Shown: piece after piece, positions 6,315 through 64,000 of the stretch
How the letters are laid out: each line of letters opens with the position of its first letter
Numbering within the stretch: position 1 is the first letter of the stretch
Sequence record: FJ373894
Length of the DNA: 64,000 nucleotides
From: Shigella phage Ag3
Strand: one strand, 5' to 3'
Notes under the pieces: generated by a model
The model's database searches: none
Seen by the model: only the letters and a program-made list of their open reading frames with translations
What the model was told of the DNA's origin: nothing
Program-made: the position numbers and the translations under genes

Positions 6315-6545
6315 ATGAAGGGCTTCCAGGACTTTCTTGAAGACTCGGCAGCCCCTGGCACCACTACCACCGATGTGGGGAAACCCGAAGGTGGTATGGT
6401 GAAAGAGCCTGTCAAGAAGCCCAAGGATCTTGAGGAAGAACAAGAGCAGACCCCCTTCCAAAAGATCTTTGGAAACATCTTCAAAGACCTGGATCTGAAG
6501 AATGCGCGAAAGTGGAACTTCAGGACAGGCAAATATGAAGACTAA
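6315..6545 (+). CDS. small protein with capsid-targeting-sequence-like N-terminus (candidate internal head protein)
   Basis: 76 aa; N-terminus MKGFQDFLEDS resembles T4 internal-protein CTS (MKTYQEFIAE, recalled); same N-terminal motif in ORFs 60863..61102 and 61112..61681. Confidence 0.4.
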   Translation: MKGFQDFLEDSAAPGTTTTDVGKPEGGMVKEPVKKPKDLEEEQEQTPFQKIFGNIFKDLDLKNARKWNFRTGKYED

Positions 6546-60458: not shown

Positions 60459-60866
60459 TTACGACAGCTGCTTCAGTTTGTAGATCGTCTGATAGCACAG
60501 CGTCTTGATTTCATCAAGCGTGTTCTGAAGGTGGGAGTCGCACTGCCTGTAGATGCCATCGACGTCTATCACCACGCTGTTGACATAGGAGATAGGGTCT
60601 GGGTTGTACAATTTGATGTTCTCAAACGACGGAACGTACTGGCCACCCGCACCGATGTATGCTTCGGTAAACGTGTCCAGCAAGTCCTCCAGTTCCCCGT
60701 AGAACTCCCCGAGTGCTTTGTGCTTGGCATAGGACGTTGTAACGAAGTGTAAGGCATGAGAGTGGGCTATAGCAAGCAGTCCACGGTTGATGAAAATACT
60801 CGCGTTAACCATGATTTGTTTCCTCAGAAAAAGAAATCCCCCTGTATTTAGGGGGATTGTAATCAC
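60459..60866 (-). CDS. hypothetical protein
   Basis: 135 aa from GTG 60866 (GTGA overlap) or 117 aa from ATG 60812. Confidence 0.4.
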   Translation of the reverse strand: MITIPLNTGGFLFLRKQIMVNASIFINRGLLAIAHSHALHFVTTSYAKHKALGEFYGELEDLLDTFTEAYIGAGGQYVPSFENIKLYNPDPISYVNSVVIDVDGIYRQCDSHLQNTLDEIKTLCYQTIYKLKQLS

Positions 60867-61102
60867 GGCTTGACCAGAGTCATCTTGACGGTTTCACCCG
60901 TGTCGGTGTCTGTCAGGGTCATGACGTCTTGCGCATTCACAGACTTCACTTTCCCTTGTCGTTTGTCGCCGTTGCGGTTGTAGTAGTCGATCAGCTCGCC
61001 TTTAGTTGGGCGACCAACATCAGTGATGTCATACTGTCCACGCTTACCCAGAGCACGATGGTCAACTTTCGCCTCTGCCAGGAAGTCTTTAAACCCTTTC
61101 AT
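60863..61102 (-). CDS. small protein with capsid-targeting-sequence-like N-terminus (candidate internal head protein)
   Basis: 79 aa; N-terminus MKGFKDFLAEAK resembles T4 internal protein CTS (MKTYQEFIAEA, recalled) including an L-A-E potential prohead-protease site. Confidence 0.45.
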   Translation of the reverse strand: MKGFKDFLAEAKVDHRALGKRGQYDITDVGRPTKGELIDYYNRNGDKRQGKVKSVNAQDVMTLTDTDTGETVKMTLVKP

Positions 61103-61111
61103 ACAACCTCC

Positions 61112-61681
61112 TTAGACAGGCTTGACGCCGAGGAACTTGGCGATATCAGCAGCCAGGTTTTTACCCTTGCTGATGTCCTGTTCCTTGCCATTGCATGTGA
61201 CGATCACATACGGGTCGTCTTCGCCGCCGAAGTTCACGGTGATCGCCTTGCCGATGCCAGGGATGCCAGAGTATTCGAACTCAGTGCGACCACTTTTGCG
61301 GGACTTGCCAACACCCAGTGCTTTGCCGATCATCTTGTCCATGTTCGCCAGTTCCTGAGCATAGGCTTCGGTCACCTGACCTTTGTCAGCAGACTTGCCA
61401 AAGAAGAATTCGAAACCGTCATGGACAGCAACGACTTCCTGACCTTGGGAGATACCGTGAGTCTGGTCTGGGGTCAGCTTCACCTTGATGGTATTGCCGT
61501 TGGTTAACTCCAGGTTGTAGACATCCGCCTGATTGTCAGGGGTAATCTGGGTCACGGTAGCACCTGAGCACCACTGAGTGCCGTCAGCTTGCTTGGTGAT
61601 GGATACGCTTTTGCCCTGGACACCAGCATGGGTCTGAGGCTGAGCAGCTTGTTCTTTAAAGTATTGAAGGAACGGTTTCAT
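61112..61681 (-). CDS. protein with capsid-targeting-sequence-like N-terminus (candidate internal head protein)
   Basis: 189 aa; N-terminus MKPFLQYFKEQAAQ; size similar to T4 IPIII. Confidence 0.4.
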   Translation of the reverse strand: MKPFLQYFKEQAAQPQTHAGVQGKSVSITKQADGTQWCSGATVTQITPDNQADVYNLELTNGNTIKVKLTPDQTHGISQGQEVVAVHDGFEFFFGKSADKGQVTEAYAQELANMDKMIGKALGVGKSRKSGRTEFEYSGIPGIGKAITVNFGGEDDPYVIVTCNGKEQDISKGKNLAADIAKFLGVKPV

Positions 61682-61738
61682 CTTGAATCTCCTCGGGGAT
61701 TTCAGTTATTTATAAGCCCCCGAAGGGGCTTTAGATGA

Positions 61739-63595
61739 TCAGATTTTAATCTGCATGTTGCCGCCCAGGGACTGCTCATACTCACTGTATGCGCTCTCCC
61801 CGTCGTCTTTCGCCCACTGGTCAGACTGCTGGGCGCGAGCCAGAGTCATCAGGTTTGGTTCAGTCGGGTTGTAACCCTTGGATTTCGCATCCTGGTACAG
61901 AGTCTGCAGGTACTGGTTGGCGCGGTCAATCTGAGCTTTGAACTCGCGATATGCACCTTCAGTTGTATTGCGGCGGAAGGTGATATCCCAGTCCACGTTC
62001 AGAGTCTGACCATCACGGCTTGCATAGATCTGCCAATCCAGGTCGCGACCTTTTGGAGCGTTGTCGCGGATGGAACCAGCGTATGTTGCAAGGTCAACAC
62101 CAGTCTTCTTAGCAGTATCCGGTTCTTTATCCAGGCGTTCTGTTTCTTTGGACAGGATACCCAACATAAATTCATTGGTGCGGCGATCCGCCATGTCGTG
62201 CCCGCGCCAAAGGACTGAACCGTTGTTGTCAACAAAAATGTCGTCCAAAAATACTTGTTTCGGATTATGTGACGTGCTGTTCAGAGTTTGCATATTCCGA
62301 GATATCATTTCCATTTTAGAAGAAATTTCATCGATCACGGCCTGAACAATATCTTTCTTCAAAGGAAGTTCATATGTCTTCGGATTGTTCAACAGTCGCC
62401 CTTTCTGAGAGATCATCGGCGTGAACGCGACTTTTCCTTTGTCGTAGTAATAGGTCACATTCGTGGTCAATACAGCACCATCATACTTCCCAGTTTTCGG
62501 GAAATTGACACCAGACCAAGTGATGGACATACCGTTGACAGTCTCACCAAACACCATGGCGTTGCGCGGCATCTTCAGGGTTCCAGAGTTGACCAGATCA
62601 GCGCCCTGGGCATTCAGGTCGATAGAACCATAGATGGTCCCGCTACGATCTTTCAGCATCAGGGTCTTGTCGCCCTTCTCTGGGATGATTTCCAGCAGGT
62701 GCTTGCCGCGCAGAGGCTCTTTGTTGAGTTCCAACAGAGCAGTGTTCCCTGGTTTCACACGATTCAGGACAGCGTCGGTCACTTTCAGAGTCCAGTTTGC
62801 GGTCTCAACATAACCCCAACCCTGAGAATGGCGAATACCCTTGATAGGGTAAGGGGCGCTCATCGGCACTGCGCTAATTTCCCATTCGCCGCGATACTGA
62901 TGTTCGGCCACGTATGTGATCGTTTCCATGATTTCGTTTGCCACCCGACGAGCATCGCCAGAGATGACACCAGGCTGAGTTTCGATTTCAGAGAACACGT
63001 TGTAGGTCAGATTCTTGCCATCGACTGAATCGAAGCTGACGATGATCACCAGACCACCTTTAGTTTGATAACGCGCCTGTCCGATCTTCTTAATGCTTTC
63101 CCCTGGGAGATAGCTTGCTTTCTGGTCAATGTTGGTATCAATGATACCCAGAACACGAGCGATGAAACCGCTGTCACGCAATTGATCGATACTGGTTGCC
63201 CCGATTGTGGTGTTGGAGTCAGCTGGCGCGGACTTCTGCTGAGAACCTTTCCAAAATTTTGTGGACGCCGTGGTGAAATCATTCAGGATACTGATAGGGA
63301 CTTGCGGTAATTTCAACTGACGAGCAATGAAATCAGCACTTTGCCCACGCACAGATTTCTCATTCATGTATGCGCCAACATACACGCCTGGCTCATTGTA
63401 GTGGGGAGCGATATTTGCCGTGTTCATGCGGCCTCTCTCCTTACCAACCCATATCAACATGGGTTGATCCCCGTTTGAAGTTAATTTCCATCCGTTGGAA
63501 TCATCAACAGAAGATGAAGCCCCCACATCTGGGGTATTGTCCTGAACCGGAACGTCGCCGACCTTGTCCGGGTCATCCCATGTGATGCCCTGCAT
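61739..63595 (-). CDS. large hypothetical protein
   Basis: About 618 aa from ATG 63595 (or GTG 63658, 639 aa); no catalytic motif recognised. Confidence 0.45.
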   Translation of the reverse strand: MQGITWDDPDKVGDVPVQDNTPDVGASSSVDDSNGWKLTSNGDQPMLIWVGKERGRMNTANIAPHYNEPGVYVGAYMNEKSVRGQSADFIARQLKLPQVPISILNDFTTASTKFWKGSQQKSAPADSNTTIGATSIDQLRDSGFIARVLGIIDTNIDQKASYLPGESIKKIGQARYQTKGGLVIIVSFDSVDGKNLTYNVFSEIETQPGVISGDARRVANEIMETITYVAEHQYRGEWEISAVPMSAPYPIKGIRHSQGWGYVETANWTLKVTDAVLNRVKPGNTALLELNKEPLRGKHLLEIIPEKGDKTLMLKDRSGTIYGSIDLNAQGADLVNSGTLKMPRNAMVFGETVNGMSITWSGVNFPKTGKYDGAVLTTNVTYYYDKGKVAFTPMISQKGRLLNNPKTYELPLKKDIVQAVIDEISSKMEMISRNMQTLNSTSHNPKQVFLDDIFVDNNGSVLWRGHDMADRRTNEFMLGILSKETERLDKEPDTAKKTGVDLATYAGSIRDNAPKGRDLDWQIYASRDGQTLNVDWDITFRRNTTEGAYREFKAQIDRANQYLQTLYQDAKSKGYNPTEPNLMTLARAQQSDQWAKDDGESAYSEYEQSLGGNMQIKI

Positions 63596-63626
63596 CTTCG
63601 GACCGTCGAATACCTGAGCAGGATCT

Positions 63627-64000
63627 TTACCCTTGCGAACCAGCCATACATAAACCACGGTCAGGGACAGGCGCGTAGGTCAGGTCCATGACGTTCAGCT
63701 TCTGCTTCAGGCCGGACTGGCGGATGATCTTAGGAATCAGGGTCATCCCGCGTTCCAGCGCTTTCTTAGAGAAGTTGACAGCATAACCATCGATGGTCTT
63801 GCCCAGAGGGGTCGCCAGGAACTGCTTGGTCGCTTCGATCATGGAAGCAATGACGCGCATTGGGTTCTTGAAGCGAGCGATAGCATCAGGATAGACGGAG
63901 CCGCGCTTCTGGCCGATGAAGACCTGACGAACGTTCTTGCCCAGCCCCTGAGGGGTATAGAACTGAATGCGGTATTCCTTTTCATCTTCGTCGATGAAGG
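63627..64000 (-). CDS. hypothetical protein, 5' part outside window
   Basis: Open reading frame continues in-frame to the window end; C-terminal 124 codons visible; ends at TAA 63627. Confidence 0.4.
   Translation of the reverse strand, partial: FIDEDEKEYRIQFYTPQGLGKNVRQVFIGQKRGSVYPDAIARFKNPMRVIASMIEATKQFLATPLGKTIDGYAVNFSKKALERGMTLIPKIIRQSGLKQKLNVMDLTYAPVPDRGLCMAGSQG

Follow-up and report, generated by a model that had tools for sequence, protein, structure and literature searches.

The left end of the genome of Shigella phage Ag3 (record FJ373894) contains two adjacent genes, for proteins of 79 and 189 amino acids (aa), whose products begin with a decapeptide resembling the capsid-targeting sequence (CTS) of the internal proteins (IPs) of bacteriophage T4. 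The analyzed stretch of 64,000 nucleotides (hereafter the window) is the first 64 kb, from rIIA onward, of an Agtrevirus genome (Ackermannviridae, ViI-like). Its nearest relative is Shigella phage Gloob (~98% identical); P46FS4, ChubbyThor, and LIMEstone1 are also close. The explanation that we prefer, and consider probable, is that this late-transcribed pair encodes proteins loaded into the phage head by a T4-type CTS. Head targeting is well supported; the two proteins are very probably packaged in virions and possibly injected. An earlier note on this DNA placed both open reading frames (ORFs) correctly, leaving out that they lie on the minus strand. The features on which the argument is built are the following (arrows mark the bond after a Glu residue that is a known or candidate cleavage point).

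61707..61714, minus strand: T4-type late promoter TATAAATA, perfect match, 25 nt 5' of the 189-aa start codon
61112..61681, minus strand: gene of the 189-aa virion protein (ORF; PHROG 4048, a family with no assigned function; homologues in virions)
61652..61681, minus strand: codons 1-10 of the 189-aa gene, MKPFLQYFKE, candidate capsid-targeting propeptide, predicted cleavage after Glu10
61367..61369, minus strand: Glu105 codon of the 189-aa gene (GQVTE↓A), at the junction of two domains and candidate for a second prohead-protease site
60863..61102, minus strand: gene of the 79-aa protein, CTS (residues 1-10) plus SH3/Tudor-like beta-barrel (residues 14-79)
61073..61102, minus strand: codons 1-10 of the 79-aa gene, MKGFKDFLAE, candidate capsid-targeting propeptide, predicted cleavage FLAE↓A
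60835..60858, minus strand: intrinsic terminator, 9-bp stem and T-run, directly 3' of the 79-aa stop codon
6315..6545, plus strand: third CTS-like gene, 76 aa, MKGFQDFLED, immediately 3' of a Hoc-like head decoration gene

The 79-aa ORF starts with MKGFKDFLAEAK and the 189-aa ORF with MKPFLQYFKEQAAQ. The decapeptide MKTYQEFIAE is quoted as the T4 CTS (PMC8442874). In the T4 record, IPII starts with MKTYQEFIAE↓ARVG and IPIII with MKTYQEFIAE↓ASVV, and the form MKTYQEFIAEA given in the earlier note is correct for these two proteins; IPI differs (MKTFKEFTSTTTPVSTITE↓A). The significance of the resemblance was estimated with 919 peptides, that is, the ATG-started peptides of all six frames with at least 40 codons after the start. 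The regular expression ^MK.[FYW]..[FYWLIV][LIVF].[ED] matches exactly three ORFs in the six frames of the window, the 79-aa and 189-aa ORFs and ORF 6315..6545, the number expected by chance among the 919 peptides at the window's own amino-acid frequencies being 0.054. When the same peptides are scored against MKTYQEFIAE with BLOSUM62, the 79-aa ORF ranks first (score 26; background mean -7.1, standard deviation 6.4), ORF 6315..6545 second (22), and the 189-aa ORF fifth (14). The N-terminal resemblance to the T4 CTS, which had been claimed for all three ORFs, is well beyond chance, and we favor packaging partly because the 79-aa N-terminus is the best match of the 919, with so few matches expected.

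At the DNA level, the pattern ATGAARNNNTWYNNNNNNTWY was observed five times against 0.24 expected. The copies of the tag differ in their synonymous codons; for instance, Leu8 is encoded by CTG, CTT, TTG, or CTA. Therefore, it is the peptide that is conserved and not the DNA, and the interpretation of the tag as a DNA repeat or a recombination scar is ruled out.

The functional positions of the T4 CTS are known from mutagenesis (Mullaney & Black 1996, as reviewed): residues 4 and 7 serve mainly in targeting and residues 8 and 10 in processing, Asp at position 10 of IPIII blocks cleavage while targeting is kept, and the protease gp21 cleaves after Glu within L/I-x-E (PMC9026906). The targeting positions, in each case after M-K, are occupied by F4 and F7 in the 79-aa protein, F4 and Y7 in the 189-aa protein, and F4 and F7 in the 76-aa product of ORF 6315..6545. 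At the processing positions, the 79-aa protein has L8 and E10 (FLAE↓A), a full match to L/I-x-E, and the 189-aa protein has F8 and E10 (YFKE↓Q); in the family of the latter, position 8 is F, L, M, or Y, hydrophobic but not strictly L or I. The product of ORF 6315..6545 has Asp10 and so lacks the processing determinant.

In the 189-aa family (29 members, including those with a swapped C-terminal part), only F4, E10, and E105 are invariant, and position 7 is F or Y in nearly all members and H in two. Its N-terminal variants MKTFLEFFTE in Klebsiella phages and MKKFSEFLVE in Serratia phages are nearer to T4 than the window copy. In the 79-aa family (23 sequences), M1, K2, and F4 are invariant, F7 and L8 are conserved in at least 90%, and an indel-prone linker starts directly after E10. 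One member of this family has no E10 but carries VTE↓A further along, as in T4 IPI. Judged from these alignments, the positions conserved across genera coincide with the determinants defined by T4 mutagenesis.

The evidence for presence in virions is published mass spectrometry (MS) on homologues from phages Sajous1 and LIMEstone1, not on Ag3. In CsCl-purified Sajous1 virions, liquid chromatography with tandem MS yielded 196 spectra for gp214, which is among the five most abundant virion proteins, 32 for gp215, 20 for gp216, and 10 for gp217 (PMC10892097). According to the GenBank record, these are, in order, the large protein encoded next to the pair, the 189-aa homologue (MKPFIEYFKE), the 79-aa homologue (MKGFPDFLKE), and a Dps-like protein. 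In LIMEstone1 virions, electrospray ionization tandem MS confirmed ORF78 (Dps-like), ORF80 (the 189-aa homologue, 2 peptides), the large protein as ORF81 (23 peptides) and ORF82, and ORF85. Absence from virions, named in the earlier note as grounds for giving up the idea of packaging, is not what these data show: homologues of both proteins are present in Sajous1, and that of the 189-aa protein in LIMEstone1 as well.

The two genes are separated by 9 nt, and the 79-aa gene has a GGAGG ribosome-binding site of its own. The window contains two perfect matches to TATAAATA, one of which is the promoter at 61707..61714; this promoter and the terminator hairpin of the gene upstream overlap, and a late promoter is annotated at the homologous site in the LIMEstone1 record. 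Because this promoter lies 5' of the 189-aa gene and a terminator lies 3' of the 79-aa gene, the pair is, as far as its signals indicate, a bicistronic late unit. An Rfam scan of the window gave no match.

T4-type head, tail, and replication genes are common to the relatives of Ag3. Gloob gp150 matches the structure of the T4 gp21 protease (PDB 5jbl, E=1e-16), and gp149 carries the annotation of a prohead core protein; ORF139, which corresponds to it in LIMEstone1, is labeled "scaffolding protein gp22". Gloob gp151 and T4 gp68 have a C-terminal basic tail in common, and the capsid protein matches T4 gp23 (E=1e-63). Its maturation site NLGE↓S is a candidate only, as no Ackermannviridae capsid structure was found in PDB by sequence. 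Two of these proteins have tag-like segments of their own, both out of the motif register: TFADFLAS at residues 8-15 of gp151 (L005 41488..41793) and the start MKPELQKLFE of the scaffold gp149 (L005 39894..40766). Perhaps these segments mirror the surface to which the tag binds or which it imitates.

The same tag is found in proteins encoded outside the window. Gloob gp182, orthologous to LIMEstone1 ORF173, starts with MKTFLQYLQE↓SEHP and is an ART-PolyVal ADP-ribosyltransferase (PF18760, 46.6 bits, E=7.8e-12). In the LIMEstone1 record, ORF173 is a virion protein confirmed by MS and has a late promoter, and we consider gp182/ORF173 likely to be a packaged Alt-like effector. The gene (L006 29160..29618 in Gloob, L033 7191..7649 in LIMEstone1) is annotated as "N-acetyltransferase" or "unknown structural protein". 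Another case is a gene of about 60-65 aa in the tRNA cluster, starting with MKTFGDFIAE in Gloob gp174 (L006 24806..25003) and MKSFSDYLNE in LIMEstone1 ORF167 (L033 1808..1993). The former decapeptide is identical to the T4 CTS at 7 of 10 residues, and the annotated start of gp174, a TTG nine codons upstream, is probably wrong. T4 ipI likewise adjoins a tRNA cluster. Thus, the folds that bear the tag are unrelated to each other (SH3-like barrel, alpha/beta domain, and ART-PolyVal ADP-ribosyltransferase), and several of its carriers are in virions. The product of ORF 6315..6545 is acidic and of low complexity, and was not seen in published virion proteomes.

The confident AlphaFold2 (AF2) model of the 79-aa protein (predicted local distance difference test score, pLDDT, 88) has disordered residues 1-9 followed by a small SH3/Tudor-like beta-barrel at residues 14-79. 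Its predicted mature product has 69 aa, a mass of 7.7 kDa, and an isoelectric point (pI) of 9.35. The earlier note expected such a protein to have a unique sequence, and this expectation failed: apart from the tag, it is a widespread phage module. A profile search found the barrel in 32 representative clusters with the signature [IV]DYYD..G[DN]K..G.V, often C-terminal or in tandem, and among the members found by this search only the Ackermannviridae-like ones are tagged. The tandem arrangement is seen in protein P0054, and in P0075, P0079, and P0080 the barrel is C-terminal to motifs of the GH.GRPG..GGS type. No Pfam family covers the barrel, and searches of Pfam, NCBIfam, and PDB sequences for a function of the tagged proteins gave nothing above threshold.

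The 189-aa protein is a core gene product of the phage family, with 72-100% identity in about 275 genomes, and it is mildly acidic (pI 5.9). Such conservation and acidity argue against a classic arms-race effector, the profile in which the earlier note had cast it. In its AF2 model, the weaker of the two (pLDDT 66.7), a helix spans residues 4-11, confidence is low over 10-41, residues 43-94 form a beta-rich domain, and a low-confidence linker (96-104) leads to a confident alpha/beta domain (105-189). Glu105 falls at this linker between the two domains. In both AF2 models residues 1-10 are outside the folded domains, and both predicted cut sites adjoin flexible segments. Cleavage of the 189-aa protein after Glu10, predicted from the T4 precedent, would leave a mature N-terminus at Q11 (QAAQPQTHAGVQGK), and a second cleavage, probably after Glu105, would produce a fragment starting at A106 (AYAQELANMDK). 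A match to the TOBE domain at residues 41-86 remained below threshold (E=0.0098, 16.5 bits against a cut-off of 22.3).

The place of the 79-aa gene is a variable slot. In 21 related loci from IMG/VR, the interval between the 189-aa gene and the Dps-like gene is occupied by a 79/80-aa gene, by a gene of 142-160 aa starting with M[KR]GFQDFLTE↓[AV]KQVGW, by a 201-aa gene on the opposite strand starting with MKTFQDFLTE↓AAPP, or by nothing. All occupants begin with M[KR].F.D[FY]L..E. The T-even IP loci have been described in the same terms, as variable with only the CTS constant (PMC3012670).

A second level of variation is observed within the 189-aa family, where modules are exchanged exactly at x-x-Glu junctions. 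In proteins P0024-P0029 the C-terminal module is swapped exactly after Glu105. In phages of the CBA120 and SFP10 types, GQVTE105↓A is followed by a "GW" module that corresponds to the N-terminal part of Gloob gp90, and in other relatives the barrel of the 79-aa protein comes directly after VTE↓A. One protein is built as tag, domain 2, KVE↓G, and barrel. These internal Glu junctions look like protease sites and, if they are, would extend the picture drawn for the T-even IP loci.

The pathway that we propose follows T4. The tag (residues 1-10, with hydrophobic residues 4, 7, and 8 and Glu10) would bind a scaffolding core of the gp22/gp68 type, and the protein would be enclosed in the prohead. 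A gp21-type serine protease would cleave after Glu10, and probably also after Glu105 of the 189-aa protein, releasing a basic SH3-like protein of 7.7 kDa and, from the 189-aa protein, one fragment or two. The mature proteins would remain with the packaged DNA; their presence in virions comes from MS on the homologues, and the location within the head from the T4 model. They may then be ejected into the host with the DNA, a step that is likely but less certain. Candidate roles after entry, given in no firm order, are that the small basic barrel binds DNA or protein and that the hypermodified genome is protected. A role in early counter-defence, the suggestion of the earlier note, is the least supported candidate and in our view doubtful; if there is one, the variable basic 79-aa barrel is a better candidate for it than the 189-aa protein.

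Comparison with T4 reveals both common features and the distance between the proteins. The common characteristics are (i) a decapeptide tag with M-K, aromatic residues 4 and 7, a hydrophobic residue 8, and Glu10 followed by Ala, Gln, or Lys; (ii) late expression, virion presence, known from homologues, and, in genomes of this type, a gp21-type protease together with a gp22-type core; (iii) a gene slot whose content varies except for the tag; and (iv) loose synteny of the endolysin gene, tagged genes, and a regB-like gene. The last of these is approximate: the earlier note placed the pair close to the endolysin gene as in T4, whereas the endolysin homologue is ~3.6 kb away with several genes between, and T4 e, ipIII, and ipII are adjacent. 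The regB-like gene, Gloob gp95 (L001 11828..12442; Sajous1 gp211), has a signal-peptide-like N-terminal segment, MTMTTLKAMALSVTFTIASGNVHA, and its "RegB" annotation may deserve a second look. If Sajous1 gp211 corresponds to the RNA endonuclease row of the published Table 6, it accounts for 31 virion spectra (PMC10892097).

The mature regions are different. In a permissive BLASTP search against the T4 IPs, only residues 1-13 align (MKGFKDFLAEAKV vs MKTYQEFIAEARV), with nothing significant in the mature regions, and we reject the mature proteins as homologues of IPI, IPII, or IPIII. The terms "IPI-like" and "IPIII-like" used in the earlier note hold for size, and for the 79-aa protein also for charge (T4 IPI* has 76 aa and pI 9.0, the predicted mature 79-aa product 69 aa and pI 9.35), but not for sequence. 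The folds also differ, IPI* being made up of a pair of beta-sheets with flanking helices and the 79-aa protein of an SH3/Tudor-like barrel; the 189-aa protein, unlike the T4 IPs, has two domains and is probably cut internally. T4 belongs to Straboviridae and Ag3 to Ackermannviridae. The DNA of Ag3, we assume, carries hypermodified thymidine, as opposed to glucosyl-hydroxymethylcytosine in T4.

Other systems offer partial parallels. The tagged ART-PolyVal virion protein gp182/ORF173 resembles T4 Alt, which is packaged in the head, processed by gp21, and injected. Polyvalent proteins are different in that the 79-aa and 189-aa products have no enzymatic domain and are not giant multidomain proteins, the ART gene lying outside the window. 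In the giant phages phiKZ, 201phi2-1, and SPN3US, many head proteins are cut after Glu by a gp21-related protease, with polyprotein-like internal cuts (PMC9026906); there, the motif is S/A/G-x-E with no defined N-terminal decapeptide, and these jumbo phages have an inner body. Full-text literature searches found no paper linking Ackermannviridae with a CTS or internal proteins, and the CBA120 paper makes no statement on internal proteins. The mechanism itself is known from T4; the mini-polyproteins with Glu junctions are possibly a new twist.

The neighbors of the pair on both sides also encode proteins that are found in the virions of relatives.

60459..60812, minus strand: Dps/ferritin-like gene (117 aa, ATG at 60812; Pfam DUF5856, PHROG 858), downstream neighbor
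61739..64000, minus strand: gene of the large virion protein (~800 aa in relatives), upstream neighbor, start beyond the window end

For the Dps-like gene, a 135-aa ORF call with a GTG start overlaps the 79-aa gene, and the ATG at 60812 agrees with the relatives. The large gene is interrupted by an additional T near 63650 (GGTTTATG vs GGTT-ATG in Gloob) and therefore reads as ORFs 61739..63658 and 63627..63860+. In LIMEstone1 this N-terminal region is broken by a different frameshift (ORF82/ORF81), and MS detected each of the two halves; the frameshift could be a sequencing error, a real split, or recoding. In relatives, the large protein begins with a CTS-like motif displaced by two positions (MSKPNFLQFMQE↓K or MAIPSFLNFLEE↓S), which reads FLQFMQE↓K, FLNFLEE↓S, or FLDFMKE↓R.

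Several observations weigh against loading into the head by a CTS. The 189-aa N-terminus is the weaker match of the pair (rank 5, with Phe instead of Leu or Ile at position 8), and this acidic, highly conserved protein is unlike the T4 IPs. The 79-aa homologue of LIMEstone1, ORF79, was not detected in LIMEstone1 virions by electrospray ionization tandem MS. The Dps-like neighbor is a virion protein with no CTS; therefore, a protein can be associated with the virion without the tag. The genes of the protease, scaffold, core, and capsid proteins are beyond the window, and the copies analyzed are those of Gloob, 98% identical. Cleavage, location in the head, and ejection are argued by analogy with T4. 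Finally, the authors of the Sajous1 study proposed a tail-associated role in iron or molybdate utilization (PMC10892097).

The alternative that survives best accepts the CTS and packaging in the head and sees in the two proteins structural or DNA-organizing contents of the head, ejected or not, with no role in counter-defence. They could be remnants of the core, or proteins that condense DNA or modulate pressure, similar to the functionally unassigned T4 IPII and IPIII. We regard this as a real possibility, somewhat short of an even chance. The 189-aa gene is indeed a conserved core gene and not a variable arms-race gene, the large neighbor is among the most abundant virion proteins, the searches of the tagged pair yielded no match, by fold or by family, that pointed to an enzyme or inhibitor, and the small basic barrel of the 79-aa product belongs to a class in which nucleic-acid binding is frequent. 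Opposed to this, the 79-aa slot is variable and empty in several relatives, which fits better with an accessory role, and the presence of the same tag on a polyvalent-type ADP-ribosyltransferase suggests host-directed effectors.

A bolder extension of CTS-mediated loading, which we put forward tentatively as rather unlikely, is that Ackermannviridae carry plug-and-play cargo. The decapeptide tag and x-x-Glu sites would act as connectors, and shuffled effector modules would enter the head and be cut apart by the prohead protease. The modules would be the SH3-like barrel, the "GW" module, the alpha/beta domain, and the ADP-ribosyltransferase, strung into mini-polyproteins, and the 189-aa protein would itself be a polyprotein cut at Glu10 and Glu105.

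It is improbable that the shared N-terminus, instead of being a targeting signal, was left behind by common ancestry or by recombination of cassettes, or provides a context for translation initiation, and that detection in virions reflects adventitious co-purification. The tag is short, some of the spectral counts are modest, the 79-aa homologue was missed in one phage, and rIIB, DNA ligase, and the like were also detected at a low level in virion preparations. On the other hand, the conserved positions are the experimentally defined T4 determinants, synonymous codons differ between the copies, and the tagged folds are unrelated. The proteins were detected in two phages by independent laboratories, with 20-196 spectra in one of them, and an invariant Glu at a module boundary is hard to account for without a protease.

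The sole published functional proposal for the tagged genes, made for the same four genes and from the same virion MS (Sajous1 gp214-gp217), is a tail-associated "ferrojan horse" operon of molybdate-binding, helicase-like, and ferritin proteins exploiting host iron uptake for entry; the paper does not mention the N-terminal tag or the protease sites (PMC10892097). This is very improbable: Phyre2 assigned gp215 to a BiMOP molybdate-binding domain (63% confidence) and gp217 to ferritin (96.7%) (PMC10892097), the sub-threshold TOBE match points the same way, and the neighbor is genuinely Dps/ferritin-like, but infectivity was undiminished on TonB or FeoB mutants (PMC10892097), tail placement is a conjecture, the gp216 "helicase" was called at 27% confidence and is an SH3/Tudor-like barrel in the AF2 model, and the shared tag, the conserved Glu, and the swaps at Glu junctions are left unexplained.

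The ViI-like phages (Kuttervirus, Agtrevirus, Limestonevirus, and Taipeivirus) are widely isolated and used in biocontrol and detection, and about half of their genes have no known function. For them, a T4-type tag would account, in a way open to experiment, for a cluster of functionally unassigned virion proteins, one of the most abundant ones among them, and it is an alternative to the published tail proposal. It also gives a simple sequence rule by which candidate packaged or injected proteins, one of them an ADP-ribosyltransferase, can be listed across the family, and it could serve to load foreign proteins into these phage heads, as in T4. If the cargo is indeed assembled from exchangeable modules, the tag alone would reveal the whole repertoire of injected proteins in a therapeutically used phage family, and this repertoire could include protectors of hypermodified DNA from modification-dependent restriction.

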